A stretch of DNA of 58,786 bases from an uncultured Bacilli bacterium (lineage in GTDB: Bacteria; Bacillota_I; Bacilli_A; RFN20; CAG-449), in the NCBI GenBank assembly GCA_947629415.1, contig CANRDP010000003.1:1-58786 (forward strand), in the 5' to 3' direction. A program made the translations under genes and the position numbers. The notes below the pieces were generated by a model. The model was not told where the DNA came from. It made no database searches and saw only the letters and a list, made by a program, of their open reading frames with translations. Positions within the stretch are counted from its first letter, which is position 1. Each line of letters opens with the position of its first letter. Shown piece after piece: positions 2,083 to 50,137 of the stretch.

Positions 2083-3129
2083 ATGGATAAACAATTACTT
2101 GAAGATTTAACTCAGCTTTTCGGCCCTTCCGGGCACGAAGAAGATGTTGCCAAATATCTTAGAAAAAGATATGAAGAAATGTCACTTGAAGTACAACGGG
2201 ATCCTTTTGGAAATATATATGGAATAAAACATTCCAAGAAGAAAAATACAAGAAGAGTACTTCTTCTATCCCATATGGATGAAGTAGGATTCGTGGTTAC
2301 CGGATTTTTGGAAAATGGCTGTGTGAAAGTTTCTCCATTAGGAGGATTCAATGTGGAAACGATCCTAGCTTCCCGAGCAATATTAAAAAAACAGAACGGA
2401 GATTTTTTATATGGTACGGCTTCAGCCTTGTCTCCACATTTATTTCAAGGAAAAGAAAATGAAAAAACATCGATTGAAAATATGAGTTTTGATTTTGGAT
2501 TTCTTTCCAAAGAAGAGGCAAAAAAGGAGATTACTATCGGAGATCCGATTCTTTTGGAAGGGAAATTTTCTTTTTTGAATCACGGAAAAAGAATATTATC
2601 AAAAGCTTTGGATGACCGAATGGGACTTGCTATGGGAATAGAAGCCGTAAGAAATGTGCAAAAAGAATTACCTTACGAGTTATATTTAGGCGGAAGTATG
2701 CAGGAAGAAGTCGGACTTCGCGGAGCACATTCCGCCGGGGAATTCGTTCATCCGGATTTAGCAATTGTCGTGGATTGTTCTCCGGCAACCGATCAGGAAG
2801 AAGGCTCTTTAGGAAAAGGGGTTTTACTGCGGGTATTTGATCGATCTATGATTGCAAGAAAAGAATTAATTGCTTTTCAAAAGAAGTGTTTGGAAGAAGT
2901 GCAGGTCCCTTATCAATATTATATCGGTAAAGGTGGTACCGATGCCGGGGATTTACACCGTGTTCGGGAAGGAATCCCAACACTGACGTATTGTTTATGT
3001 GCTCGGGCAATTCACACTCCCTCCAGTGTTTTGGATGTGAGTGATTTTGAAAATGCTGTTCGAGGATTAACGCATATTTTGGAATCTTTAGAGGAAAAAG
3101 ATTTGGCAAATTTTCGCTACGAAAATTAG
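2083..3129 (+). CDS. M42 family aminopeptidase
   Basis: SHMDEVG, KALDDR, QEEVGLRGA, GGTDAG, IHTP; start moved to ATG 2083 behind AGGAG (ORF track starts at 2059). Confidence 0.9.
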   Translation: MDKQLLEDLTQLFGPSGHEEDVAKYLRKRYEEMSLEVQRDPFGNIYGIKHSKKKNTRRVLLLSHMDEVGFVVTGFLENGCVKVSPLGGFNVETILASRAILKKQNGDFLYGTASALSPHLFQGKENEKTSIENMSFDFGFLSKEEAKKEITIGDPILLEGKFSFLNHGKRILSKALDDRMGLAMGIEAVRNVQKELPYELYLGGSMQEEVGLRGAHSAGEFVHPDLAIVVDCSPATDQEEGSLGKGVLLRVFDRSMIARKELIAFQKKCLEEVQVPYQYYIGKGGTDAGDLHRVREGIPTLTYCLCARAIHTPSSVLDVSDFENAVRGLTHILESLEEKDLANFRYEN

Positions 3130-3142
3130 AAAGAGGTAAATT

Positions 3143-4243
3143 ATGTTGGAAGTAGAAAAGAAAGCAAAAGGATTGATTCATCGCTTAACAAATGAAACTT
3201 TTCAATTTGATCCGCGATTAAAGGAAGGTTTTTTTACCGCGAACTATTTTTTGAAAACAAGAAAAATCGTCATGGAAAATATTCCGAATCAGAAAGTGAC
3301 CATGCAATTTTTCCAAAGAGAAGATGATGTCATGCTTTGTGGGATAGATGAAGCAATTGCTTTAATTCAGTGCTTTGCAGAAAATCCTGAAAATTTGGAA
3401 ATCGAAGCATTAAATGATGGTGATATGATTTCCAACGGAGAACCGGTATTGAAAATAACAGGACGATATGAAGATTTCGGTTTTTTGGAAAGTATGATTG
3501 ATGGAATTTTGGCACGTCGCAGTTCTGTGGCAACCAATACTTATCGAGTTTTGAAAGCCGCGAATGGGAAGGCCGTTATCAATATGGCCGATCGTCAGGA
3601 TGAATATCATACCCAAATCGGAGATGGTTATAGTGCTTATGTTGCGGGATTAAAGCTTGATTCTACCGATGCCATGGGCTATTGGTGGGGTGGAAAAGGT
3701 ATGGGAACAATGCCTCATGCTTTGATTCAAATCTGCGGAGGCGATATTTTAAAGGCTGCGGATTTTTATCTGAAAACATATCCCCAGGAAAAGGTCACGG
3801 CATTAATCGATTATCATAATAATGTTGTTGCGGATTCACTTATGATTGCTCGTCATTTGAAAGAAAGATTAAATGCGGTGCGAATCGATACTTCCAAATC
3901 CTTGATTGACCATTATTTTGATGATAAAGATACATCATCTTTTGATCCACACGGAGTATGCAAAGAATTGGTTTTTGCGCTACGAGAAGCATTAGATAAA
4001 GAAAACTTTACTTATGTGAAAATTATTGTTTCCAGCGGTTTTGATGCCAAAAAAATTCAAGAATTTGAAAATGCACATGTTCCCGTGGATACTTATGGCG
4101 TAGGCACAAATTTAGTGAAAATTTCCGTTGGTTTTACCGGTGATCTTGTGGAATTAAACGGAAAAAGCGAGGCAAAAGAAGGAAGAAAAAATGTTTTTTC
4201 CTCTCGATTGGAAAAAGTAAAATTAAACAAAAGAGAAAAATAA
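3143..4243 (+). CDS. pncB: nicotinate phosphoribosyltransferase
   Basis: GTMPHALI, VRIDTS, IIVSSGF, YGVGT motifs. Confidence 0.88.
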   Translation: MLEVEKKAKGLIHRLTNETFQFDPRLKEGFFTANYFLKTRKIVMENIPNQKVTMQFFQREDDVMLCGIDEAIALIQCFAENPENLEIEALNDGDMISNGEPVLKITGRYEDFGFLESMIDGILARRSSVATNTYRVLKAANGKAVINMADRQDEYHTQIGDGYSAYVAGLKLDSTDAMGYWWGGKGMGTMPHALIQICGGDILKAADFYLKTYPQEKVTALIDYHNNVVADSLMIARHLKERLNAVRIDTSKSLIDHYFDDKDTSSFDPHGVCKELVFALREALDKENFTYVKIIVSSGFDAKKIQEFENAHVPVDTYGVGTNLVKISVGFTGDLVELNGKSEAKEGRKNVFSSRLEKVKLNKREK

Positions 4244-4382
4244 AAATAATTTCCAGAGAAAAATTTTTTGAGGATAACATAATCGTTATAATAAAAAATT
4301 AAACCTAAGCACAAGAAAATGAAAATGACCTTACAAACGAAAAAAAATATTTTATAATGAAAAAAGAAGGAGATCAAACAAT

Positions 4383-5606
4383 ATGAAAAATATAATTGTC
4401 GGTCAGTCTGGTGGCCCAACATCTGTCATTAATTCTTCTTTGTTAGGTGTATTTAAAACTGCGAAAGATTTGAAATGTGACAAAATTTACGGAATGGTTC
4501 ATGGAATTAAAGGTTTATTGGATCGAGATGTCGTGGATTTAAGACAACAAATCAAATCGGATTTAGATATGGATTTATTGAAAAGAACTCCATCTTCTTT
4601 TTTGGGATCTTGCCGTTATAAATTGCCGGATATTGAAGGTAATGAAGAAACTTATGAAAAGATTTTCAAAATTCTGAATGAATTGGAAATTTATGCTTTC
4701 TTTTATATCGGTGGAAATGATTCCATGGATACAATCAAAAAATTATCGGATTACGGTGAAAAAATCAAAAGCCCGATTCGTTTCATGGGTGTTCCGAAGA
4801 CAATCGATAATGATTTGGCCATGACGGATCATACTCCGGGTTATGGAAGCGCCGCAAAATATATTGCTGCAACCATGAAAGAAATCATTTGCGATGGTTT
4901 GGTTTATGATTATCCAGTTGTTACCATTGTGGAAGTTATGGGAAGAAATGCCGGATGGTTAACGGCGGCAGCGGCTTTGGCAAAAGGTGAGGATTGCAGT
5001 GGTGTCGATATGATTTTCTTACCTGAAATACCATTTAACATTGATTTATTTTTGAAAAAGACCGGAGAATTGTTAAAAGAGAATCGCTCAATTGTTATTG
5101 CTGTTTCCGAAGGTGTGAAAGTAAAGGATGGCCGATATGTTTGTGAATTAGCGGATCATGTAGAATACGTGGATTCCTTCGGTCATAAACAACTATCCGG
5201 GACCGCTCGTTATTTAGCTTCTCGTGTAGCAACTGCCTTTAATGTAAAGACAAGAGCAATTGAATTATCATCCTTACAGCGATGTGCGGCACATATGACT
5301 TCTCGAATTGATATTACCGAGGCATTCAATACCGGTGGTGCGGCAGTGAAAGCAGCTTTGAATGGATTATCCGGACATGTGATTACTTTAAAAAGAGTCA
5401 GTGAAGATCCCTATATGTGTATTACCGAACCTGCGGATGTTCATTATATCGCCAATGTCGAAAAGAAAGTACCTTTGGAATGGATCAGCGATGACGGAAC
5501 CTTTGTCAAAGAGGAACTTGTTCATTACATTCGCCCTTTGATTCAAGCGGAAATCGCTCCATTATGGGTTGATGGATTACCAAGACATTTGAAATTAGTG
5601 AAATAA
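4383..5606 (+). CDS. pfp: 6-phosphofructokinase, probably PPi-dependent
   Basis: QSGGP, GGNDS (Asp at the phosphoryl-donor specificity position), PKTIDND, EVMGRNAGW. Confidence 0.85.
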   Translation: MKNIIVGQSGGPTSVINSSLLGVFKTAKDLKCDKIYGMVHGIKGLLDRDVVDLRQQIKSDLDMDLLKRTPSSFLGSCRYKLPDIEGNEETYEKIFKILNELEIYAFFYIGGNDSMDTIKKLSDYGEKIKSPIRFMGVPKTIDNDLAMTDHTPGYGSAAKYIAATMKEIICDGLVYDYPVVTIVEVMGRNAGWLTAAAALAKGEDCSGVDMIFLPEIPFNIDLFLKKTGELLKENRSIVIAVSEGVKVKDGRYVCELADHVEYVDSFGHKQLSGTARYLASRVATAFNVKTRAIELSSLQRCAAHMTSRIDITEAFNTGGAAVKAALNGLSGHVITLKRVSEDPYMCITEPADVHYIANVEKKVPLEWISDDGTFVKEELVHYIRPLIQAEIAPLWVDGLPRHLKLVK

Positions 5607-37035: not shown

Positions 37036-37608
37036 TCATAAAGAAAGAGAACACACGAAAATTCCAAGGATTGCCGAAATAAGAATAAAGGGCAGAGCTT
37101 TTAAATCTTTTTTTGTTTCTTTTTTATAAAGATGAAGAATAAAAATCAAAAGTAAAAACAAAAGAAGCGAGGTAAAATCAAATTGAAAATTCGGAGAAAA
37201 TCGGATATCTATGAGATCACGTATCATCAAAAGACCGGTCGTAAGAATCAAAGAAATAATGGTTGGTCTTATTCCTTCCAAAGCACTTTTCACATGTCGA
37301 TTTTCCAAAAAATGAGATAAGAATTTAGCAAGAATAAAAATAATAAGAAAAGAAGGAAGAACCACACCGAAAGTAGCAACAATACTACCGAAGAAACCTC
37401 CATTTGTCGCTCCGATAAAAGTAGCCATATTGATGGCAATAGGGCCAGGTGTCGATTCACAAACACCAATCAAATCGTAAAGTTCAGTTTCTTCTAACCA
37501 CTGATGTTGTAGGACGGTTTCTTTTACCAGAGGAATCATGGCATATCCTCCTCCGAAAGTGAAAAGTCCGATCTTGAAAAATTCCAGGAAAAGCAGCAGA
37601 TAAATCAT
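37036..37608 (-). CDS. short-chain chromate transporter (CHR) subunit
   Basis: FFKIGLFTFGGGYAM, ESTPGPIAIN.ATFIG. Confidence 0.9.
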   Translation of the reverse strand: MIYLLLFLEFFKIGLFTFGGGYAMIPLVKETVLQHQWLEETELYDLIGVCESTPGPIAINMATFIGATNGGFFGSIVATFGVVLPSFLIIFILAKFLSHFLENRHVKSALEGIRPTIISLILTTGLLMIRDLIDIRFSPNFQFDFTSLLLFLLLIFILHLYKKETKKDLKALPFILISAILGIFVCSLSL

Positions 37609-38204
37609 TGTTTTTTACCTCCTGCTTTCAATGAGAAAACGATGAAACCGAGCAATGCCGAGGCTAAAATATAAAATATGGAAGAAAAATCAATTGAAAA
37701 AATATCAAAAATAATCATGAGAAGAAATACAAGAGAAAAAAGAAGACAATGAAACCAGGTTTTTTTCATTTTTTTCAGCATGGAATAACCGGCACGGAAA
37801 ATCAAAATGGAAACAGCAACTTTAATACCGACAAAAGCGTATTGAATAATTTGAAATTGCATGAATTGATCAAAAAATAGTGAAATAAGGTAAAGAAGGA
37901 TTAAAGAGGGGAGAACAACACCGAGAGTACTTAAAAGAGCACCGAAAAATCCTCCTTTTTTGTAGCCGATGAATGTAGCCGCATTGATAGCGATAGGCCC
38001 CGGTGTCGATTCCGCGATGGCAATGATTTGAATTAATTCTTCATCTTCAATCCATTTCTTGTTTTCAACCAACTCTTCGCGCAGATTGGAAATCATCGCA
38101 TAACCACCGCCAAAGGTGATGATACCGATTTTAAAAAAAGTCAAAAAAAGACTTTTTACCGATAAATTCTTTTGAATTGGAGATGGTGTTTTTTCTTCTT
38201 CCAT
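37605..38204 (-). CDS. short-chain chromate transporter (CHR) subunit
   Basis: FFKIGIITFGGGYAM, ESTPGPIAIN; likely start ATG 38204. Confidence 0.9.
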   Translation of the reverse strand: MEEEKTPSPIQKNLSVKSLFLTFFKIGIITFGGGYAMISNLREELVENKKWIEDEELIQIIAIAESTPGPIAINAATFIGYKKGGFFGALLSTLGVVLPSLILLYLISLFFDQFMQFQIIQYAFVGIKVAVSILIFRAGYSMLKKMKKTWFHCLLFSLVFLLMIIFDIFSIDFSSIFYILASALLGFIVFSLKAGGKKQ

Positions 38205-38311
38205 AAAAGTTACCTTTTGAGCTTTAAATTTATCATATCTATTTTTGGAAAAACAAGCAAGTTTATTCTTTGCTATGCTAGAAAACAAAATCAAATTAGT
38301 ACGAACAAATA

Positions 38312-38383
38312 TAGTAATTACACATGAAAATTAAAAGAATATACAAAAATATGTTTTTCATGCAAAAATCATCAAAAACAAAC
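38312..38383 (+). repeat. left 72-bp inverted repeat
   Basis: TAGTAATTACACATGAAAATT...CATCAAAAACAAAC; reverse complement of 48559-48630 with 1 mismatch. Confidence 0.95.
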
Positions 38384-38578
38384 GTCTTAAAAATGCATTT
38401 TCAATTGAATCACCGAATGTTACATTTCAAAGTAATACGAATCGGCTTACATTTTACGTTTTTTTCGATGATAACATTTATTTTGGCGTAGAATTTACTT
38501 TTAAAATAATAGAAAATTAATTTCTATTGAAAACTTTTACTAATTTTGAAATAGTTTTCATTATAGTGAAAACTTTTT

Positions 38579-39086
38579 CTTAATAAAGAAATTAAACCTT
38601 TTTATGAATCTAATTTAATTAAGATTATTGTCGGTATAAGATGATGTGGTAAATCGGTTATATTAGAACAAGTCATGTCCGAAATAAAAAAGAGAAGTGA
38701 TAATATTATTTATTTAAATTTTGAAAATGAGATAATACTTGAGCAATTTAAGAAAGCTCGTGATGTTATCAAGTATGTTTTAGAAAATAAAAAAGAAGGA
38801 AAATGTTATCTTTTTTTCGATTAGATTCAAGAAATGAAGCAGTAATCTAAGGTATGTAAATGATAAAAAAATTGATTTTTTAGTTTCGAAAGAGGGATAT
38901 CAATATTACATTCTAGTTTCCTTCAGTGTTATTGATCCAAAGACGAAAGAAAGAGAATTATCTTTATTTTATTCATTAGATAATTCTATTCAAAAGATTT
39001 TAATTACGAATGATGATGTAGATTTTTCTACCTCGACAATAAGACATATAAAATTAAAAGATTTTCTTTTAATGGGAAGTCTATAA
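38579..39086 (+). pseudogene. AAA_14/DUF4143 ATPase pseudogene
   Basis: Manual translation IKIIVGIR*CGKS...IYLNFE...YLFFD*IQE joined to C-terminal IDF...YI.V...T.ERE...DN...HI...DFLL; stops at 38642 and 38822, central part deleted. Confidence 0.85.
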
Positions 39087-39127
39087 TAAGAGTCATTTAA
39101 ATGAACAAGTATTTTTTATAGTGAAAA

Positions 39128-40405
39128 TTATTTGTCGGATTTTTGCATTAAATCCTCCAAAAAATAAAGTTGATAGAAAAATCCTTCTAACATTTTTACA
39201 GGGATACTATTTCCAGCCATACGGATTATTTTATCTTTAGAGAATAATTTTCCTCTTTTTCCATTCATTATGTTATGCTCTATAAGAGTTTCATAATCTT
39301 TGTCGTTAAAGCCCATAAACAAGAGACATTCACGTGGGGTTAAGTATCTAAAATGACTTTTACCTCTTTTGTTGCAATTATAATAAATATTTCCAGAATT
39401 AGGATGTCGATCTTGCTTGGTGGTAATTGTACGAATAAATTCCTCACTAGTTAAATGACCACTTTCATCGATGATTTTAGGATTTTCGTTCCAAATTCTT
39501 CTTCTAGATGGAGTATCATTTGGCGTGGATTCAAACATCTCATTTTCGTATTTTGTTTCGTTAGTTCGTAATAAATTCTCAATTGTTATTTTTTTATAAT
39601 AGCTTGATTCTTCGTATTTTTTAACAATATATTCTTCATTTTCCCCCCAAGAATTAAAGAATTCTTCAACTTTAGCAGCCAATTTCTTATCATCTCCAAC
39701 ATAAACACTTAACATCAGTAATCTTGGTCTATTTTGTGGAATTCCATAATTTCTAGCATTTACAGGCAAATATTTGCTAATATATCCTAATTCCTTTAAA
39801 TTATTAATCCACTTATTGAAATTATTGATATGTCTTTTTGAAAGTAAAGTTGGGACATTCTCCATGATTAAATAACGTGGAAGAGATTTTCCACATGATT
39901 TCATTTCCGCAAGAATTCTGCCAACTTGCCATAGTAAACTAGATCTGCTTCCCGAGCCTTCTTCTATTCCTTTATTATAGCCGTGAAAAGCACCAACATT
40001 TGATAAATCTTGGCAAGGGAATGAATAAGTAAGTAAATCGGTATCTTTAGGCATATTTCTTCCTTCGATTTTACATATGTCAGTTAAATTTTTTGTTCTT
40101 TTAATGGATGTATATATGCGTTTTAACATCTCATCACTATATCCCTGTAATGTCTTTAACTTCATTGGACTTTTTCCATCACCACTTAAAGTATAATGAC
40201 TTAATTTTTCAAGAATAATTTCTTTAGACATTTTTGAAATCGAAGGCAATATATTTGTCCCTTTATGCATTGCATCATAAGCAACAGATGCATGAATATC
40301 CCATTCACAAGTTGCTTGTACTTTAATTTTAATACCGATATTTTGAAGTGCTCTTGCTTGACTTCCAATACCACTAAAAAATTCGACTATTTTTAATTCT
40401 TTCAT
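39128..40405 (-). CDS. dcm: DNA (cytosine-5)-methyltransferase
   Basis: Motifs I FSGIG, IV FPCQDLS, VI MENV, VIII QNRPR, IX RECLLFMGF, X GNSI. Confidence 0.93.
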   Translation of the reverse strand: MKELKIVEFFSGIGSQARALQNIGIKIKVQATCEWDIHASVAYDAMHKGTNILPSISKMSKEIILEKLSHYTLSGDGKSPMKLKTLQGYSDEMLKRIYTSIKRTKNLTDICKIEGRNMPKDTDLLTYSFPCQDLSNVGAFHGYNKGIEEGSGSRSSLLWQVGRILAEMKSCGKSLPRYLIMENVPTLLSKRHINNFNKWINNLKELGYISKYLPVNARNYGIPQNRPRLLMLSVYVGDDKKLAAKVEEFFNSWGENEEYIVKKYEESSYYKKITIENLLRTNETKYENEMFESTPNDTPSRRRIWNENPKIIDESGHLTSEEFIRTITTKQDRHPNSGNIYYNCNKRGKSHFRYLTPRECLLFMGFNDKDYETLIEHNIMNGKRGKLFSKDKIIRMAGNSIPVKMLEGFFYQLYFLEDLMQKSDK

Positions 40406-40460
40406 AGTTTTGTTTCGATTCTAAAATTACATTATTGAAATTTAATGTGCTTAATAGCGA

Positions 40461-42569
40461 TTAATCAATTAATACGCCAACATCACCTAATTTTTCACGA
40501 ATTTTCCAAATCAATTTGGCCTGTTTAGATGAGGGGAATTTGGGCATTTTTGTATCAAAGGTAGTGGGGATTTGTAATAAACTAATTTCTGTAGGAGATA
40601 ATATTTTTCTTTTTAATCCTTCGTCTAATAAACGTCTCCAATAAGGGGCACCTAAGTTAAATATTTCAGTTTCGATATTTACATCTTTTAAAAGTTTATT
40701 ATCTTTTGTTTCAGAACGGGATTGTTCTTCAATTAGGCTCTTGTTTAATAAGGATTTGCAAAATTCATCAGTAAATTGATATTTTATTTGTTTGTAATTA
40801 ATCCATGTAGCTTCTTTTTTACATTGTTCCATACCATTGCCACCTAGATTTTGAATATATTCGAATGTTATTTGAGCTAACCGTTCGATTTCTGCAACTA
40901 GAGATGGATATAATTTTTGTTTTTTCCAAATTAAGTTATAGTCTAGGCATAATTCATTTGGAATTAAAGAAATTAATTTTGAAATTGTATAAGATACCAC
41001 GCCTGCTTTAACATATGTTTCAGTAATATACCATGAATTTGAAGCATTTTTAACAATTTTATCAGTTTCTTTGAATAAAATGGCATAACATATGCAGTTT
41101 TTAAAGAATTGGTCGTTGATACTTTCTGGTGATTTTTGATATTTTTCATCAATATATTCAGCAAAGAAAGACATACATTTTTCAGAACCTTTACATACTT
41201 GATCAGGTCTTAGTAATTCTGCAGAAACGAAGTATTTAGATAATTCTTCCTTTTTGATTACTTGATTCTTTGGATATTTTTTAGCAAAGTTGTCTTTTTC
41301 GCTCTTTTTTAATAATTTAAATTGTTCTTGTCCATATTGACCTCGTGATCGTTCATAAAACCATAATGTATTATTAATAGAATCTTCTTTCGCAGGTGCT
41401 TGATTCTTTTTTGCTAAAGCTTCAAATGCACGATGGAATGGATGATTAGAGAATAAATCAGAATCTTTTATTTTATTTTGACTATTTGCATATTTTGAAA
41501 TATTTTGAATCATCGTGTCATAATCATCATTTTTAACAACGGTTAATTTCATAGGAACAAAAATGTTATCAAGTGACATTTTATCTTTTAAAGCTGCAGA
41601 AGTTAATGAAGCGGTGGTTTGACCACCATTGATGATTTGTAAATCCGTAATTCTAGTAATTTTATGATTATCGTCGGATAAGGTAATTTCGGATGCGGTA
41701 CAAGCAATCCCATTATTATACGTAAAGAACTTTGTCGGTTCATTTTTAATTGTTAAACGAATTCCTTTATTGATTTTGCCTCGATTGCTTAAAAATGTAC
41801 GAACATTGCCCTCTAATAATCTTGATCCATGTTCAAAATAAATCTTATGAAGCAAATTTCCTGGAACAATTGCTAAATAGGCATCATAATCTAGATTTCC
41901 ACTCATTTCAGCCTTAATACAGGGGATTCCATCAACTCCATATTTATTAGTTTCGATTACAATAGGTTCTCTTTCCCGGCCCGATTGATATAAGTCATAA
42001 AATCTATATAGTGACCAAATATCCATTTCTACTTTTTTATCATGAAAAATTTCAAAAGGAAGAGTTTTAACCCTTTCGCTTAATCTTTTGTTTGTAATTA
42101 TGATGAGTTTTATTCGATCAATTGATTCATTTGATTCTAAATCAACATAATCTATTTTTAATCTTCTTCCAATATCTTTACCTACTAATAAAAGATTATC
42201 AGTTATATCAAAATATTTATCTAATTGGTTATCATAGGCTTCATCCAAAAAATTTATCATTCTTTGCATAATTTGTTTAATTAGAGTCATCGTAATTGTT
42301 TCATTTGTATTGTCTATAAATTCGCTAGAAATTAAAACTAGGGATTTATCGGATTCATCAAAAGCATATGCATCAAAAGACATGATTTTTTGATTTCTAC
42401 ATTTTTTTTGCATTGGAGCAATTTCGGGGTTTACAACTAAACTCATATCAACAAGTCTTTGAATGGTATCGTTTAAAAAATACTCATCAGGAGTGGTTCC
42501 TTCAATTTGAGCATTAATATCAATATCTTCCAAAAATTCTTTTTCAAATTCTTCATATGTTTGATTCAT
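40461..42569 (-). CDS. AIPR family protein (MzaE-like)
   Basis: LLEGNVRTFL, FFTYNNGI, QIINGGQTT, NSQN. Confidence 0.9.
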   Translation of the reverse strand: MNQTYEEFEKEFLEDIDINAQIEGTTPDEYFLNDTIQRLVDMSLVVNPEIAPMQKKCRNQKIMSFDAYAFDESDKSLVLISSEFIDNTNETITMTLIKQIMQRMINFLDEAYDNQLDKYFDITDNLLLVGKDIGRRLKIDYVDLESNESIDRIKLIIITNKRLSERVKTLPFEIFHDKKVEMDIWSLYRFYDLYQSGREREPIVIETNKYGVDGIPCIKAEMSGNLDYDAYLAIVPGNLLHKIYFEHGSRLLEGNVRTFLSNRGKINKGIRLTIKNEPTKFFTYNNGIACTASEITLSDDNHKITRITDLQIINGGQTTASLTSAALKDKMSLDNIFVPMKLTVVKNDDYDTMIQNISKYANSQNKIKDSDLFSNHPFHRAFEALAKKNQAPAKEDSINNTLWFYERSRGQYGQEQFKLLKKSEKDNFAKKYPKNQVIKKEELSKYFVSAELLRPDQVCKGSEKCMSFFAEYIDEKYQKSPESINDQFFKNCICYAILFKETDKIVKNASNSWYITETYVKAGVVSYTISKLISLIPNELCLDYNLIWKKQKLYPSLVAEIERLAQITFEYIQNLGGNGMEQCKKEATWINYKQIKYQFTDEFCKSLLNKSLIEEQSRSETKDNKLLKDVNIETEIFNLGAPYWRRLLDEGLKRKILSPTEISLLQIPTTFDTKMPKFPSSKQAKLIWKIREKLGDVGVLID

Positions 42570-42572
42570 TTG

Positions 42573-43493
42573 CTAATTCTCCTTATTTTTTTCTATCATA
42601 GATAGGGATAATTCATATTGAACTTTGATTATTTCTTTGGGTAGATCTATCATTTTTATACGTGGGAAATTTTTATCTACTAAATATGAATCTCTTTCAA
42701 CAAAATTATAAACGTAATTGTCATAAATTTCATTATACGAATAACCAACTTGTTTAAGTTTTTCAAAGAATATGTCTTTTTCTATTTCATACTGTAACTC
42801 ATTTGTAATTTCTAAAATAAGATTATTTAGAGTAACTCCATTAAAGCTAGAACTCATTTTTTCAAATTGATACACCACAAGGTGACCATCAAGTTCACTA
42901 TCTAGTTGCTCTAAAGAAGAAATGGTAATAGTATTTTTAAATGTGCTAATTGCTTTTATTTCATACCATTCGTTTTTAATTGAAAAATCCTTATGTGTGG
43001 GTTCTGGTCCACTCCAACCATTTAGACCGTCAGTGATATTATAGTTTTTAAAGATAAATTCTTTTAGAAACATCAACTCACCGATTAGACCAATGACTTC
43101 GTTTTCAGATAAAATTTTTTTATTTCCTGTAAACATCTTTTTCCATTGATTATAGCGATTAATAATTTCCATATAACCATTATCGTTTTCTCCAGTAAAT
43201 TTTTCTGTTTCAGTGATAATATCTTCACAAAAATGATAAAACAGGGAATTATTTTCTTCCGAATTAAAGGAAAATAAAATGGAGTTACCTTGACTTGTTT
43301 TAATTTGTTTGATTTCGATAAAATTAGTGCTTAAAACTTTTGTTGGAACAAAATTCCCATTATATCTTAAAGTTAAATATCCTTTTTCATTTTTGCCTAA
43401 ATATAACTCTAATGGATGGCTTTCACTAACTCTAATATAAGTTGAATTTTGGTTAATAGATTCTAATTTAGCTTTAATATTTTCTAATTCCAT
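42573..43493 (-). CDS. PD-(D/E)XK motif protein, DUF4420 (MzaD-like)
   Basis: GLIGEL.FL, WSGP....KDF.....EIK, ISSLEQL, FPRI; likely start 43493. Confidence 0.85.
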   Translation of the reverse strand: MELENIKAKLESINQNSTYIRVSESHPLELYLGKNEKGYLTLRYNGNFVPTKVLSTNFIEIKQIKTSQGNSILFSFNSEENNSLFYHFCEDIITETEKFTGENDNGYMEIINRYNQWKKMFTGNKKILSENEVIGLIGELMFLKEFIFKNYNITDGLNGWSGPEPTHKDFSIKNEWYEIKAISTFKNTITISSLEQLDSELDGHLVVYQFEKMSSSFNGVTLNNLILEITNELQYEIEKDIFFEKLKQVGYSYNEIYDNYVYNFVERDSYLVDKNFPRIKMIDLPKEIIKVQYELSLSMIEKNKEN

Positions 43494-43494
43494 A

Positions 43495-46263
43495 TTATTC
43501 TTCCTCGGACTGATTTTCATGATCTTTATCATAATAATCTACAGTTCTATTCACGGTATATATAATTGATTTTTTTGTTGCATCATTATCTCTTTGTGGA
43601 AATCCAATAGCATATCCAACTAGATATGAATATTTGCGTGTTTTTAATTCATTTAATAAATTAATTATATCTTTTCCTTCATCCAACCAATTTTTATCGG
43701 ACACAAATAATTCTTCATCTATCCCTTTAGGACGTTTAGGATGAATGAAATAAATAATTAATAAGGGATTTCTTCCTTTGATTAAATAGTCTTGTGCTTT
43801 TGTATGAGTTAAAGGAATCTCTTCTTCTTTTATTCCATATTTAGTATCCGACCTACCACCTAGTCTAAGTCTATGTCTACTCATTCTAATGCAGTTTTCA
43901 CGAACATCAAAAATTCTACCAACAAGAGGGATATCGATTTTTAAATTTTCAAATTTAAATTTTTCAGAAGCATCACCTCCGATGACTAAAACATCAAAAA
44001 AAGGTAGGTTTTGCTCCTCTTTTGATAAAAGCCCTTTGATTTGCTCTTGATCAAAATAAGTATTTCCTTCTTTAGGAATGATTACTGAATCGATTAATTC
44101 TTTCACAAATCTAAAAGAGATATTTCTAAAATAGGGATGATTTTTAATGTTATCATCTTTTTGTGAAATATCGATATTATTTAAAAATTCAAACGTTTTT
44201 TCTATATTAAATTCATTTTCATCTAGATTTCTTGTGAGATAGGGCGTTTCAAACAAACTTCCATAAAATGATTTAATGACTGATTTTACTTTTGTGCTTC
44301 TCATTTTATTAGCTGCAGTGATGCCTAAATCAACAGATTCATTTAATACACGAATACCAAATTCTATAGGTTTTTTCTTTTCCTCACTCATAGTTTTAAT
44401 GTCTTGTTTTAATGCCTCGATAGATTCATTAATATATTGATAATAATTATAGGAATCTTCACTAACCCAAATTCTACATAAATCCCCATATCCATCTCGA
44501 TAACCAAACCATCGACCCATTTGCATTAGCACGTCAAAAGTAGAGGTGTTTCGATAAAAATAACTTGTCATTAACCCTTCTAAAGTTAAGCCTCTAGAAA
44601 GTGCTAATCCTCCAACTGCAATTACTCTTAGTCCTTTTTTTGCTTCATTATAATTTAATTTAGATGAATTTCTAGATGAATTTACAACAATGACTTCGAT
44701 TTTAGCTATAGATTCATATAATTGTCCAAAAACTTTCTCCCAAGTAATATCAATATTATCTATATCTAATTGTTTTAAGAAATGCACATTAAAAGTATCT
44801 TGTAAATCCTTAATATTTTGATTAGTTAAAGCTATTTTCATTGGAAGTTTATATGTTTGTTTAACTGATCGTTTGATTTGAACATAATAATCTTTAGCTA
44901 TATCACAAATAACTTCTTGTACTTTAATAAATCTTGACATATTGATTAACATAGAACGATGTGTGTTTTTATTGATATCTCTTAAATCTCTTATAGCATT
45001 AGCAATAAGAAATGTTCGAATTGATTCATAAAAAGAATCAAATAGTTTAGCACCATCCCATTCTTTTCTATGCTTTAAGGGAAAAATTTCATCGTTATAA
45101 TCTTTTATAAAGCGAATGTTATTATTGGATTCAACAAAATATTTTCTAGGTCCACAATAATTGCTTGGTGCATTTAGTGCGAAAATAAAGTCTTTTGGAA
45201 ATAAATCATCCTTTTTCATTTCATCTTCTTCACTATAACTAATGAACACATTAGCAAATGGGGTAGCGGTGAATCCTACATAGCTGCTTTTTGTGAATAA
45301 AGATAATATTTTTCTAATATGTTTATTGATTTTTGTAGGATCCTCATCCTCTTTGTTTGTATTAATCGATGCGTTATCTGCTTCATCATCAATGATTAAT
45401 GCAGGGTAATTAATTGTTTCTTGACCTGGATAAGTGTTAATTCTTTTCAATGATGAATATATTTTTCTTAAAACACTGACATTTTTCTTAAGAATAAAAA
45501 TTAATGGTTCAGAAGAGTAATTACTTAATTTATATGTAGTATTTTGATCATCAGTACTCACAAAATCTTTTCCTCTGCTAGTAAAGGCTTTTGGTGTTTT
45601 TTCACCTCTTCCAACACCAACTTCAACTCCATTTAAACTATCCCAACCAATAAATCCTTCTTCAACTCTTTGTTGAGTCTGTCTTCTTAGGCTTTCAATT
45701 GTTCCAGTTAAAATAAAAATCACTCGATATCCAGCATCTGCGGCTTTTGTTATTAATCCGATGTAGTTGGATGTTTTTCCTGATTGAACATCACCGACAA
45801 CTAAACCTCTTACTGAAAATGTAGCATCTTCATTGGGATTACCTAAATGTGACATCAAAGTGAATAATGTTTTATCTAAAGTGTTAATGACATTATCTGT
45901 AAAATTTGGTTTATTCGTTAAATAATTCTTATATCTCTCCCAATAATAAGGATTAAAATCTTTAGAATTTTTTAAATTTTCATACCATTTGTCATCATGC
46001 TCATAGTCACCTAGAATAATACTTCCTTCTTCTTGATAAACAGAATATAGGGATTTGATTTTATTTAAAAGATAATTCTTTTCCTTTTCATTTAAGACAA
46101 AATTTGGAAGCTCTTGAAAAAATCGATTATGCGATTGCTCTATACAATTTTTAATAAAATCTTCCGTAATTCTAAAATTCGGATTACACATTTGTTGTAC
46201 ATCACATTGTGTTTTAAAATCTTTTATATAAATATCAAAAATTTCATCTTTAGTTTGATTCAT
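43495..46263 (-). CDS. SF2 helicase-like Z1 domain protein (MzaC-like)
   Basis: GDVQSGKT, IIDDEAD, GFTATP, HRSMLIN, LSRGLTLEGL, QMGRWFGYR. Confidence 0.92.
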   Translation of the reverse strand: MNQTKDEIFDIYIKDFKTQCDVQQMCNPNFRITEDFIKNCIEQSHNRFFQELPNFVLNEKEKNYLLNKIKSLYSVYQEEGSIILGDYEHDDKWYENLKNSKDFNPYYWERYKNYLTNKPNFTDNVINTLDKTLFTLMSHLGNPNEDATFSVRGLVVGDVQSGKTSNYIGLITKAADAGYRVIFILTGTIESLRRQTQQRVEEGFIGWDSLNGVEVGVGRGEKTPKAFTSRGKDFVSTDDQNTTYKLSNYSSEPLIFILKKNVSVLRKIYSSLKRINTYPGQETINYPALIIDDEADNASINTNKEDEDPTKINKHIRKILSLFTKSSYVGFTATPFANVFISYSEEDEMKKDDLFPKDFIFALNAPSNYCGPRKYFVESNNNIRFIKDYNDEIFPLKHRKEWDGAKLFDSFYESIRTFLIANAIRDLRDINKNTHRSMLINMSRFIKVQEVICDIAKDYYVQIKRSVKQTYKLPMKIALTNQNIKDLQDTFNVHFLKQLDIDNIDITWEKVFGQLYESIAKIEVIVVNSSRNSSKLNYNEAKKGLRVIAVGGLALSRGLTLEGLMTSYFYRNTSTFDVLMQMGRWFGYRDGYGDLCRIWVSEDSYNYYQYINESIEALKQDIKTMSEEKKKPIEFGIRVLNESVDLGITAANKMRSTKVKSVIKSFYGSLFETPYLTRNLDENEFNIEKTFEFLNNIDISQKDDNIKNHPYFRNISFRFVKELIDSVIIPKEGNTYFDQEQIKGLLSKEEQNLPFFDVLVIGGDASEKFKFENLKIDIPLVGRIFDVRENCIRMSRHRLRLGGRSDTKYGIKEEEIPLTHTKAQDYLIKGRNPLLIIYFIHPKRPKGIDEELFVSDKNWLDEGKDIINLLNELKTRKYSYLVGYAIGFPQRDNDATKKSIIYTVNRTVDYYDKDHENQSEEE

Positions 46264-47728
46264 AGAGTTTCTCCTTAATTAACGCTAGAATGTTTTCGTT
46301 ATTAAATGGCTCATAAGTTTTTAATAATTCGAATATTTTTTCATCATCAAATTGAAATTTGCGTCTAAAATAGTTAATTTGATTTATTCCTACTATGATG
46401 ATAGAGTCTAAAGCATTTTGTGATTGCTCTAAGTCTATTTTTCTATTACACATTGAATTATAAATATCATTATAGGGAATAGAAGATGAAATAATATCCA
46501 ATAAACGAATTATTTTTGCTTTATCTTTATCTTCAAAATCATTGATAAAATTCTTTACAAAATTAGAATCTGTATTAATAAAAAACATTTCTTTTTGCTC
46601 CCTATTTAGTCTTTTATTCCAAATTTTATTGTCATCCTTTTCTAAATTTAGGCGAGCTCTTTTAGAATTTTTGCTTTCAGATTTAGTTCGTACATCACTT
46701 ACAGCCTTTTTTAAATGTTGTAAAAATGATATTGGAATATTAGCATTTTGTTTTTTAATATCGATACCCCATTCTTCATCTAAGGAATTTGGGATATCTA
46801 CCATTATTCTTCCATATTTATATAGTTCAGAATTTAAGTTTGTAGATGCTAATTTAAACCATGTTCCATAGGTAATTAATCGATTATTTCGGTAGATATA
46901 AAATCCTTGTCCTTTTCTAAAAGAATCTATTCCTCCTAATTTTTCAATGTCTTCGTCGGATAAATCCGTAGTATGGGGAAGAATAACTTGTTGAACTCTA
47001 ATATTTTTACCATTATACTTTATATATTTTTCTTTGAATATATCGCTTTTTGGGTGATTTTCTAAAAAAGGATCCAATCCTTTAACTTTATCTTCATTAA
47101 TATAAATTTTTAGCGGAGAAAAGGGCTTGTTTAAGAATCTATGGAAGACTAATGCGATATGATGTTCCATATTTTCTACTTCTTCTTGAAGTGCTGGAAT
47201 AATAAGTCCGTCCTTCTTTTTGCTGATAATATCAAATTCTTGCCAAATAACTAAAGTTCCACTTTTTAAATCATTTAGCATATCAATTTTAGGTAATTTT
47301 TTGATTTCATCTTCGTCTAATTCTAGACAACACCAACTTTTTTCTTTTGTAGCGTAATCTAAGTCCCACATTAAAACAGAAATTATTTCATTCTTTTTTG
47401 ATGCTACAATTAATTTTCTGCATTGAGATAGGGAAGCGGATTTTAAACCAAGTCCAAATCTTCCTAAATCTTCGCTATTATATTCTTTTTTTGATCCATA
47501 TTTCATTGCATTTATTAATTCATCACGATTCATACCATCCCCATTATCAAAAAAAACAACGCTTATATCGTTAGGATTAATGGGTGTAAATATTTTTATT
47601 TCTGTTGCATGCGCAGAAATGGAATTATCAATAATATCTGCGGCCGCGGTTTCAAAACTATACCCAATAGAACGCATTGAATTCATCAAAATGCTAGGTT
47701 CTGGATTGTTTAAAATTCTTCTTACCAT
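46250..47728 (-). CDS. GHKL (MORC/MutL-like, HATPase_c_3) ATPase (MzaB-like)
   Basis: DIIDNSI, DNGDGM, GRFGLGLKSAS, GT, GFYIYRNNRLI; likely start 47728 behind GGAG. Confidence 0.9.
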   Translation of the reverse strand: MVRRILNNPEPSILMNSMRSIGYSFETAAADIIDNSISAHATEIKIFTPINPNDISVVFFDNGDGMNRDELINAMKYGSKKEYNSEDLGRFGLGLKSASLSQCRKLIVASKKNEIISVLMWDLDYATKEKSWCCLELDEDEIKKLPKIDMLNDLKSGTLVIWQEFDIISKKKDGLIIPALQEEVENMEHHIALVFHRFLNKPFSPLKIYINEDKVKGLDPFLENHPKSDIFKEKYIKYNGKNIRVQQVILPHTTDLSDEDIEKLGGIDSFRKGQGFYIYRNNRLITYGTWFKLASTNLNSELYKYGRIMVDIPNSLDEEWGIDIKKQNANIPISFLQHLKKAVSDVRTKSESKNSKRARLNLEKDDNKIWNKRLNREQKEMFFINTDSNFVKNFINDFEDKDKAKIIRLLDIISSSIPYNDIYNSMCNRKIDLEQSQNALDSIIIVGINQINYFRRKFQFDDEKIFELLKTYEPFNNENILALIKEKLYESN

Positions 47729-48035
47729 ATCCTTCTCCATATGAGTACCTTGCATATTTTCAAAAGAAAAACTTGTACTTCACTAATAGAAATGTAACAC
47801 ACTTTTGATACAAAAGCGAGAAAATTATATTGAGGTGTGGAATTAAACAATATTCTTGAATTCTATTGTTTTTGCAAGCTTTTTTAAGAAAATTAAGATA
47901 GATTTGAACAATTGTTTATATTTTTATTTCTTCATATAACCACTTTATTTGTGCTTTATCAAACTTACATTGAAAGACTTTTGGATTTTGTTGCTTAGCA
48001 ATTTTAATATTTTGTCTTTATTTTTGTTATCTATT

Positions 48036-48280
48036 AAACCACGCGGAAATATTGCTACACTAAACATCTACGATGTCTTTAGCTCCATTTGCTTATATTC
48101 TAATCCTATTTCTTTAAAAGAAAGCAAAATTCCCGCGGCTACTCATATTCTTACTTATCTTGATTTGAATAATAAAATTATTCCCGCGGATGATGATTTA
48201 CATACTCAAGTCAAAACCTCGGAACTGATTATTAGAAGAAAGGAAATTATGTATTTCATGTTGAAGATAAAATCCCCTAA
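48036..48280 (+). pseudogene. ISAs1-family transposase fragment
   Basis: NIATLNIYD...CLYS..I..K..KIPAA..IL..LDL....I.AD..LHTQ..T...I, then frameshift to KGNYVF; matches the ISAs1 EIP...DALH.Q...GDYV core as recalled. Confidence 0.7.
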
Positions 48281-48558
48281 AATTCTACTATTATTAATAA
48301 TATTCTTGTAACTTTTTATAAATTTACTAATGTAATCTTTCAAGATACGAAATAGATATTGATTCAAAAAAGATTCAAACAAAAACCAGTTGAAAGTTTC
48401 TCATTACTGTTATCAGCGATGTCATCAAAAGAATTGATGAACGATTTACAAGAACCTAAAGTTTAATAATTACTTCAAAGTGTTGATGTTTTTTTAAATG
48501 CCTTTGATTTTCAAAACCAAAAATATAGTGCCCTAATCCTTGGTTTAGTTTAAAAAAA

Positions 48559-48630
48559 GTTTGTTTTTGATGATTTTTGCATGAAAAACATATTTTTGTA
48601 TATTCTTTTAATTTTCATGAGTAATTACTA
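48559..48630 (-). repeat. right 72-bp inverted repeat
   Basis: GTTTGTTTTTGATG...TTTTCATGAGTAATTACTA; partner of 38312-38383. Confidence 0.95.
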
Positions 48631-48697
48631 AAAAAACACCTTTATTTTTTTGCAAAACATGGTAAAATAAATATTAGATAAAAAGGAGATATTTTTT

Positions 48698-49498
48698 ATG
48701 AAAATGGATGATTTCCGATTGGATGGGCGAGTGGCCCTTGTGACAGGTGGTTCCTATGGTATTGGATTTGCCATTGCAACTGCTCTTGCCGAAGCGGGTG
48801 CGAAAATTGTTTTTAATGATCGCAAACCGGAATTAATCGAAAAAAGTGTTGCCGAATATAAAAAATTAGGCATTGAAGCACACGGATACATTTGTGATGT
48901 AACCGATGAAGATGCAGTAAAAGAATTTATTGCCAAAGTAGAAAAAGAAGTTGGAACAGTTGATATTTTGGTCAATAATGCCGGAATTATCAAAAGAATT
49001 CCTATGATTGAAATGTCTGCGGCGGATTTCCGTCAAGTTGTCGATATCGATTTGAATGGACCATTTATTATGGCCAAGGCAGTAATTCCCGGAATGATCA
49101 AGAAAGGTCATGGTAAAATTATCAATATTTGTTCCATGATGTCGGAATTAGGCCGTGAAACCGTTTCCGCTTATGCCGCGGCAAAAGGCGGATTGAAAAT
49201 GCTGACGAAAAATATTGCTTCGGAATACGGACAATATAATATTCAATGCAATGGTATCGGTCCCGGTTATATTGCAACACCTCAGACGGCACCATTAAGA
49301 GAACGTCAGGCGGATGGTTCTCGTCATCCGTTTGATTCCTTTATCGTTGCGAAGACTCCGGCAGAACGTTGGGGTACACCGGAAGATTTGCAAGGACCTG
49401 CGGTTTTTCTTGCTTCCGATGCTTCAAATTTCGTGAATGGTCACATTCTTTATGTGGATGGTGGAATTCTCGCATATATAGGTAAACAACCACAATAA
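48698..49498 (+). CDS. gluconate 5-dehydrogenase (SDR)
   Basis: TGGSYGIG, NNAG, YAAAK, C-terminal DGGILAYIGKQP. Confidence 0.9.
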   Translation: MKMDDFRLDGRVALVTGGSYGIGFAIATALAEAGAKIVFNDRKPELIEKSVAEYKKLGIEAHGYICDVTDEDAVKEFIAKVEKEVGTVDILVNNAGIIKRIPMIEMSAADFRQVVDIDLNGPFIMAKAVIPGMIKKGHGKIINICSMMSELGRETVSAYAAAKGGLKMLTKNIASEYGQYNIQCNGIGPGYIATPQTAPLRERQADGSRHPFDSFIVAKTPAERWGTPEDLQGPAVFLASDASNFVNGHILYVDGGILAYIGKQPQ

Positions 49499-49509
49499 AA
49501 AAAGAAAAT

Positions 49510-49540
49510 AAGGCCGTCGGAAGAAGACGGTCTTTTCCTT
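49510..49540 (+). terminator. rho-independent terminator
   Basis: AAGGCCGTC-loop-GACGGTCTT followed by T-rich sequence. Confidence 0.7.
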
Positions 49541-49618
49541 AAAAGTTTTCTTTTTTATTTGCATTAAAATGAAAAATCGTATATAGTACTCTATTATTAG
49601 GATGATTAGGAGAAAAAT

Positions 49619-50137
49619 ATGATCAACATAACATTAATCGGCCAAGACATTTATTTAGCTTCCCGAATTGAAAAAGGGATGCTTTCTTCATTGGCGAAAC
49701 TTTATGAAGTTCATGAAGACGAAATTATTGTTAGTGCTCAAGAATCTTTCCTATATCATGACGGAGTAGAACAGACATCTTACCAAATTCTTGTTCGCGT
49801 GGAAGCAGAAAAAAAATATGAACCATTAGAAAAAAATGTGGCGAAATATCTTTTGAAATACATGCAAGAATATGCCATTCATACTCGGTTATATTTTCTT
49901 TATTTTGAATCTTCGCATTATTACGAAAGAATTCATCCGGATTATCCTCTTTATCTTTCGGAAACAAATTTGGTGAATCTTGAAGATGACGAAGATTATG
50001 AGGATAATGAAGAAATTTATGAAGGAGATATTTTCAAAGATTTTGCGAATCGTGAAAAAGAACCGGAAAATGAATTTGACGAAGAAGAAGAGCATGATTG
50101 CAGTTGTGAACATTGTAATCATTCTAAACATTCTTAA
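49619..50137 (+). CDS. hypothetical protein, DUF1904-like N-domain with acidic and Cys/His tail
   Basis: AGGAG RBS, host-like codon use; tail EEEEHDCSCEHCNHSKHS; the DUF1904 resemblance is weak. Confidence 0.55.
   Translation: MINITLIGQDIYLASRIEKGMLSSLAKLYEVHEDEIIVSAQESFLYHDGVEQTSYQILVRVEAEKKYEPLEKNVAKYLLKYMQEYAIHTRLYFLYFESSHYYERIHPDYPLYLSETNLVNLEDDEDYEDNEEIYEGDIFKDFANREKEPENEFDEEEEHDCSCEHCNHSKHS

Follow-up and report, generated by a model that had tools for sequence, protein, structure and literature searches.

An intact Mza defence operon between inverted ends of one ISAs1-family insertion sequence: a probable decayed compound transposon in a gut Bacilli genome

Tn5 and Tn10 are compound transposons in which two inverted copies of an insertion sequence (IS), IS50 in the former and IS10 in the latter, form arms that turn the same IS end outward on both sides of a cargo unrelated to the IS. 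Members of another family, ISAs1, are single-gene elements of 1.2-1.5 kb that generate target duplications of 8-10 bp. Passenger genes are also found between IS-derived repeats without a transposase of their own, in the mobile insertion cassettes (MICs), which include MIC231 of Bacillus cereus and the TnXax1-derived MICs of Xanthomonas and whose parents are IS4/IS231 or Tn3 elements; MIC231 has reportedly been shown to move with its cognate transposase. By definition, a MIC consists of passenger genes between IS-related inverted repeats, lacks a transposase and is activated by a cognate one, and the MICs described there are delimited by target-site duplications (PMC4337579). The name 'mza' is given to a five-gene defence system that can be exchanged between mobile elements (PMC11551731). 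We describe a 10.3-kb block, positions 38312-48630 of a 58,786-nt stretch of DNA from an uncultured Bacilli bacterium (contig CANRDP010000003.1 of assembly GCA_947629415.1), in which a methylase-linked Mza operon lies between two inverted copies of one end of an ISAs1-family IS. This whole stretch is called the window, and all block coordinates refer to it.

The block is delimited by a pair of inverted repeats, which the first-pass annotation had reported as 72 bp long and identical at 71 positions. Re-alignment gave the same result: 38312-38383 on the plus strand matches 48559-48630 on the minus strand at 71/72 positions, the single mismatch being the 11th base from the outer end, and none of 100 dinucleotide-preserving shuffles yielded two matches to the 72-mer. 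The likeness stops sharply on the inner side. The 82-nt arm returned by the repeat search is made of 72 nt of true identity and 10 nt of noise (4 mismatches); inward of the 72 nt the arms are unrelated, the identity of the left copy to the right one ending at 38383, and a sensitive BLAST comparison of the 900 bp inside each arm detected no further likeness. In the genome assembly that contains the window (1.19 Mb in 49 contigs, 90.6% complete), the search for the 72-mer that had been proposed as a check found two copies only, those at the two block edges. The idea of a dispersed repeat was rejected on this ground, a one-mismatch match to the 15-nt core on contig C2 being put down to chance, as the sequence around it is unrelated and matches no IS protein.

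The nature of the repeat became apparent from complete insertion sequences in related organisms. One copy lies in a genome of the window's own family, G006 (L155:86-2245, 2160 bp, with a 10-bp target duplication, TCGTTAAAAC); others were found on metagenome contigs (L201:991-3109, L220 and L203:3900-6018, 2119 bp each; L218:33-2180, 2148 bp) and on a contig of a viral collection (L237, about 2534-4600). In every complete copy a first open reading frame (ORF), ORF1, of 203-216 aa precedes a transposase of about 420 aa, for a total length of 2.1-2.2 kb. On NF033564, whose cut-off is 70 bits, the G006 transposase reaches 165 bits and P0121, a related transposase of 418 aa, 154 bits; both carry the domains PF13808 and PF01609. 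The two ends of the complete copies have only 16-18 nt in common and are unrelated further in; the ORF1-proximal end has an AT-rich promoter-like stretch and the start of ORF1 within about 80 nt of the terminus. The full terminus shared by the complete copies is TAGTAATTACGCATGA, of which the terminal 10 nt, TAGTAATTAC, are common to the window 72-mer, and the window arms have CACATGA and CTCATGA where the complete copies have CGCATGA.

The same termini are abundant in relatives. The outer 18 nt (TTTCATG-N-GTAATTACTA, with terminus ...TTTCATGCGTAATTACTA) occur four times in the related genome G001 and three times in G009, each time 75-77 nt from a contig end; they therefore belong to a multi-copy element that broke the assembly. 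Two kinds of end can be distinguished in these genomes. One is 83-85% (G001, over about 70 nt) or 75-78% (G009) identical to the 72-mer, and the other has only its last ~18 nt in common with it. Three inferred pairs of flanks give target duplications of 9, 9 and 10 bp. Its likeness to ORF1-proximal ends elsewhere suggests that the second kind is the ORF1-proximal end; the G001 and G009 contigs that carry it stop before any ORF. In a scan of one genome per species the 18-mer was found at 112 places. Among 80 of these loci, 28 show a CATGCG terminus on a contig that breaks off 50-734 nt into the element; assemblies of gut Bacilli, Erysipelotrichaceae, Bulleidia and Solobacterium figure among their titles, with others. 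The remaining 52 lie mostly inside genes of unrelated phyla, as expected of chance matches to 17 fixed bases. In several of the longer stubs there is the beginning of an ORF (MKK..YPDW/EWAEKY/FRGKGKTIRKVR..) whose full-length relatives are of about 203 aa, have no Pfam domain and lie typically on contigs of 2.0-2.8 kb.

Thus the 72-mer is the end of an ISAs1-family IS that is common in related gut Bacilli. The first-pass annotation had compared the repeat end with the ends of ISAs1; the assignment holds, and it is the transposase profiles of the complete relatives that carry it. The claim that the same IS end is present twice in inverted orientation also stands, since the arms match at 71/72 positions against the 16-18 nt shared by the two ends of a complete copy. 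The duplications of 9-10 bp seen in relatives fit the family, and both the relic described below and the relatives match NF033564. In length and gene content these elements depart from it, being 2.1-2.2 kb long with an additional upstream ORF1 against the usual single gene in 1.2-1.5 kb.

Which of the two IS ends forms the boundaries is indicated by a transposase relic at 48024..48454 on the plus strand, found by tblastn with P0121, its closest intact relative, and matched by NF033564 on a 120-aa ORF (E 1e-5; 24.7 bits, under the cut-off, as befits a fragment). Residues 165-257 of P0121 align to 48024-48308 with 58% identity and residues 348-415 to 48254-48454 with 35%, the second piece being in another frame with 2 in-frame stops. 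Altogether 161 of 418 residues are kept; residues 1-164 and ~258-347, ORF1 and the left end of this IS copy are gone. The relic is 39-42% identical to the G006 transposase. The right arm (48559..48630, plus strand) is contiguous with this relic, about 167 nt past its C-terminus and on the same strand, so that about 600 bp of broken IS are attached to it; it is therefore the transposase-distal end, or right inverted repeat (IRR). Both arms resemble the type of end that lies downstream of the transposase in relatives, and the left arm is the same sequence inverted. By sequence comparison, both block boundaries are identified as IRR ends of one IS, facing outward: the left one is a 72-nt stump (38312..38383, minus strand) with its terminus TAGTAATTAC toward chrA, and the right one has its terminus GTAATTACTA toward the dehydrogenase gene. 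The ISAs1 fragment reading toward the right repeat is the sole mobility remnant of the block, and the earlier statement that no intact transposase or integrase lies inside was found to be correct. A 16-aa IS match inside the ATPase pseudogene described below was judged to be due to chance.

The two repeats coincide with the limits of a piece of foreign DNA. To the left lie two half genes of a ChrA-type chromate transporter (37036-37608 and 37605-38294, minus strand; PF02417, E 3.6e-48 and 2.9e-49) and to the right a gluconate 5-dehydrogenase gene of the SDR type (48698..49498, plus strand; NF005488, 506 bits for a cut-off of 369; 92% amino acid identity to G002), the two flanking functions that the first-pass annotation had named. 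The G+C content is 26-30% in the block and 33-38% in the flanks. Orthologues of the dehydrogenase gene were found at 8 loci in relatives, and in one of them, in G002, a genome of the same genus, chromate-transporter genes lie directly upstream; the other seven have different upstream genes and are uninformative on this site. The empty site that the first-pass annotation had suggested looking for is present in G002, where chrA adjoins the dehydrogenase gene across a spacer of about 200 bp and both the block and the 72-mer are absent. When the two window flanks are aligned separately to this spacer, the left one ends at position 204 and the right one begins at 199; they meet within about 6 nt, inside an A6 run. 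The segment 38312-48630 is foreign DNA inserted into the spacer that separates chrA from the divergently oriented gluconate 5-dehydrogenase gene, and the repeats are its edges. In another gut sample, a contig of run X6 matches the dehydrogenase gene from 48683 on and is preceded by a different, G+C-richer sequence, an arrangement that represents another variant upstream of this gene, as in G001 and G003.

Could the block owe its place to the assembly, the DNA of two organisms having been wrongly joined at a 72-nt repeat that they share? The genome is fragmented into 49 contigs, and in the likely source run, X1, the Logan contigs are interrupted within each repeat (at 38352 and 48588), so that the arms are not independently bridged. 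For a chimera to arise, however, the foreign piece would have had to carry this repeat at either end, in inverted orientation, and the one base at which the arms differ goes with the flank to which it belongs. In addition, depth in X1 is similar over flanks and block (~9-14), run X5, from another study, holds pieces of flanks and block that are mostly at least 99% identical, and in run X7, of that same other study, the left flank continues into the repeat. An artefact is hardly credible in the face of these data.

What the IS ends enclose is, for the most part, a defence system, as had been proposed. Five contiguous genes on the minus strand form an operon whose first gene encodes MzaB, a GHKL-type ATPase (46250..47755; HATPase_c_3, PF13589, E 1.7e-35; PADLOC MzaB, E 1.7e-68). 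It is followed by the genes for MzaC, with a ResIII helicase and a Z1 domain (43495..46263; PF10593, E 6e-73; PADLOC MzaC, E 9e-106), for MzaD, a DUF4420 protein and putative PD-(D/E)XK nuclease (42573..43532; PF14390, E 5e-56; PADLOC MzaD, E 9e-19), for MzaE, with AIPR_N and AIPR domains (40461..42569; PF10592, E 8.5e-90; PADLOC MzaE, E 4.7e-59), and, in last position, for a Dcm-type cytosine-C5 DNA methyltransferase (39128..40405; PF00145, E 4e-50; TIGR00675, 130 bits). The gene set is that of Mza in PADLOC, and the genes themselves, with matches of MzaB-E at E 1e-19 to 1e-106 beside a C5 methylase, are not unusual. All five are full-length and colinear with the Mza operons of 5 other genomes of the order, at 43-72% amino acid identity. 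The cargo is thus recognized, by sequence, as an intact methylase-linked Mza defence system and the working part of the block; its protective function is predicted. The vehicle is another matter: within the loci fetched, none of the 5 homologous operons has these IS ends nearby. The donor of the block could not be found among 401 genomes of the order, whose best Mza operon is only 71% identical in DNA, and the ~270 bp between mzaB and the transposase relic had no match.

Between the methylase gene and the left stump lies the remainder of an ATPase gene. The non-IS DNA joined to the stump (38384..38581, plus strand) is the upstream region of this pseudogene, its positions 38493-38577 being 89% like G002:C76 1158-1240, just upstream of an intact ATPase gene in that genome. 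The pseudogene (38582..39002, plus strand), of the AAA_14/DUF4143 type, has suffered an internal deletion of about 640 bp. Its two parts align with residues 8-103 and 261-364 of the intact G002:C76 protein, which has domains PF13173 and PF13635, with 5 stops in each part and a DNA identity of 88-92%. Three distant intact paralogues, 30-40% identical to the G002 protein, are encoded on contigs C11, C19 and C20 of the window's genome. A second contig of the source run is about 91% like 38620-38780 at the same depth, and a closer paralogue may exist in the community.

We favour the view, to which we give a probability of about 0.6, that the block is a decayed compound transposon with inverted arms and now a transposase-less cassette of the MIC type. 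In the simplest history, two inverted IS copies would have come to bracket the ATPase gene and the Dcm-MzaB-E operon; the unit would then have been cut at its two outer IRR ends and pasted into the chrA/dehydrogenase spacer, with a transposase supplied by a then-intact arm or by another IS copy. The arms would later have decayed, leaving 72 nt of the left one and, of the right one, about 600 bp that include the broken transposase. In a compound transposon whose arms are inverted, the same IS end is by construction on both outer sides, and this is what the locus displays. Former full arms, including a complete left arm, and movement as one unit are what we infer from this arrangement.

Compared with Tn5 and Tn10, the block shares the same outward end on both sides and a cargo unrelated to the IS; it differs in that its arms are decayed (72 nt, and ~600 bp of ~2.1 kb), without a working transposase or a target duplication. 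Two copies of one IS end are present, of which only the right one has further IS sequence. With the MICs the block has in common passenger genes between IS-derived repeats and the lack of an own transposase. It differs from them in having neither a duplication nor a second copy. Moreover, one of its arms keeps a transposase relic, the two arms represent one and the same IS end along their 72 nt, and its parent belongs to the ISAs1 family, in place of IS4/IS231 or Tn3. No ISAs1-derived MIC was found among the titles listed on ISAs1-family composite transposons and mobile insertion cassettes.

Five observations speak against a decayed compound transposon. First, no remnant of a transposase or of ORF1 lies beside the left arm, a stump of 72 nt only. 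Second, the block edges lack a 9-10-bp direct repeat (GAACAAATA on the left, AAAAAACAC on the right), having at most an A-run in common. Third, no second copy of the unit was found, the arms having no other match among the 401 genomes of the order at E <= 1e-10. Fourth, neither an intact cognate transposase nor any further IS end is present in the 90.6% complete assembly. Fifth, the arms differ at 1 position of 72, in contrast to a relic that has lost two large parts and acquired a frame change and 2 in-frame stops.

The second observation counts for less than it might: of the 4 distinct complete insertions collected for this IS group, 3 (L201, which equals L220, then L203 and L218) likewise have no target duplication, and L155 has one. 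Either frequent recombination between copies or an insertion that sometimes leaves the target unduplicated would account for this. The missing duplication also fits a block built in place and never mobile as a unit, separate ISAs1-family insertions having been followed by capture of the ATPase-Mza DNA through recombination with incoming DNA and then by deletions. Such a history would fit the multiplicity of this IS in relatives, which makes repeated insertions plausible, and the structure of the left edge. There, run X7 has a contig with about 97% identity to 38384-38585 but with a different sequence in front of it, and position 38383/38384 is, from this comparison, the joint of the left stump to unrelated DNA, as a recombination or a deletion would leave. 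Assembly in place would, however, require two opposite insertions at nearly the same point, given that the flanks meet within about 6 nt on the G002 spacer, and the lack of a duplication is frequent in this IS group in any case. We consider it unlikely.

The contrast between arms and relic bears out what had been noted earlier, namely that the transposase is less well preserved than the ends. It is not predicted by simple neutral decay of parts of equal age. Possible explanations are that the unit was already without transposase when it last moved, that gene conversion occurred between the arms, or that the left stump originated late. In a different account, the block arrived by other means, for example homologous replacement from a donor strain or an integrative element that escaped notice; the right relic alone is a true former IS, and the left 72 nt are a secondary inverted copy of its end produced by local rearrangement or gene conversion. 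The near-identity of the arms beside an old and broken transposase agrees with it, as does the lack of further IS sequence at the left arm, and the X7 sequence that precedes 38384-38585 is patchily like the inner part of the 72-mer (30 letters, by eye). A chance duplication would not predict, on the other hand, that the limit of the left copy coincides precisely with the IS terminus and also with the insertion edge. Furthermore, no integrase, att-like direct repeat or tRNA was found at the block edges. We regard arrival by another route as very unlikely.

The state of the parent IS in this genome bears on whether a decayed compound transposon of this kind could still move. The contig ends of the assembly carry no IS stubs, unlike those of G001 and G009, which suggests that the genome, as represented by its 49 contigs, holds no live IS copy. 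The cassette is probably immobile in this genome. The data do not demonstrate the earlier proposal that the element moves its defence system in trans: one copy of the block was found, it has no target-site duplication, and the assembly contains neither a cognate transposase nor a further end of the IS. A variant in which the cassette can still be mobilized in trans, the 72-nt arms having been kept by selection or gene conversion as full transposase-binding ends and ORF1 being a new accessory factor of ISAs1 transposition, strikes us as quite unlikely.

ORF1 itself belongs to no family in Pfam or NCBIfam, although 176 relatives were collected at E <= 0.001. Its AlphaFold model is confident (predicted local distance difference test, pLDDT, 88.4) and comprises an N-terminal beta domain and a helical domain. 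Foldseek against the PDB returned nothing at E <= 0.001, and the best VIA-align score was Z 4.3, with weak MarR-like matches at Z 3.1-3.9; no fold was assigned. Other genomes of the order encode DDE transposases (PF01609) of 507-515 aa whose N-terminus is 28-34% identical to the first 80-100 residues of ORF1 (L164:229-1755, minus strand, and also L165, L166, L167 and L172). Judging from this likeness, ORF1 and another transposase group may share a DNA-binding module.

Further units of the same kind, or other cargo between the same repeats, had been proposed as a test; none was found in the genomes of the order or in the metagenome collection. In the latter, a degenerate pattern specific to this end gave no match, and among the 38 loci with the 18-nt terminus a partner end was seen only in the 4 complete IS copies; no two ends enclosing cargo lay within 6 kb of each other. 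One of 13 loci of the viral collection is a complete IS and the other 12 have no IS protein match; ORF1 had no match in the plasmid collection. At two loci of gut Bacillota (L079:1-342 and L086:1-734), an exact IS terminus stands directly after a terminator hairpin and beside non-IS genes, for a small membrane protein and a KilA-N-like protein, and both loci run off their contigs. They could be further cargo-bearing derivatives or chance matches.

The first-pass annotation had offered, as another explanation of the repeats, that they bound an invertible segment. As crossover sites of a 10-kb DNA switch, inverted repeats of 72 nt could allow rare RecA-dependent flipping, and each arm has an outward promoter-like site, TTTGCA-17-TATATT (38338-38366, minus strand; 48576-48604, plus strand), about 26 nt inside the terminus and pointing at chrA or at the dehydrogenase gene. 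These are weak matches (9 of 12), and promoter-like counts do not exceed those in shuffles (11 vs 7.4 +/- 3.1; 4 vs 7.9 +/- 2.7). Since the sites point outward on both sides, a flip would leave the flanks unchanged. Among the ORFs of 37036-50137, scanned against Pfam, none encodes an invertase or another recombinase, and the repeats are already explained as IS ends. No joint in the other orientation was seen, in contigs that break inside both repeats. Likewise, no joint from 38311 to 48631 is listed among the Logan contigs, which for the same reason are uninformative on excision and inversion, and the few joints listed have sides of 20-21 nt and look spurious. An invertible switch is highly improbable. 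The palindrome noted inside the 72-mer, CATGAAAA...TTTTCATG, does exist and appears to have no role: its fold is ordinary (z = -1.1, with 26/200 shuffles folding at least equally well) and the related ends in G001 and G009 have not kept it, so that a functional hairpin was rejected.

The block leaves current ideas on transposition and on defence islands unchanged, being a fossil cassette of a known general kind. It is a concrete case of a multi-gene anti-phage system that reached a very small gut bacterial genome (~1.2-1.3 Mb) between IS ends, and not in a phage, a plasmid or an integrase island, and it shows a delivery vehicle fossilizing while its cargo stays intact. As a by-product, the ends, the size and the gene content of a two-gene ISAs1 subgroup have been defined, the first gene having no known family, and this subgroup breaks many metagenome assemblies of gut Bacilli. 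Should the cassette still be mobilizable, two-gene ISAs1 elements of gut Bacilli would carry whole defence operons between genomes in trans.

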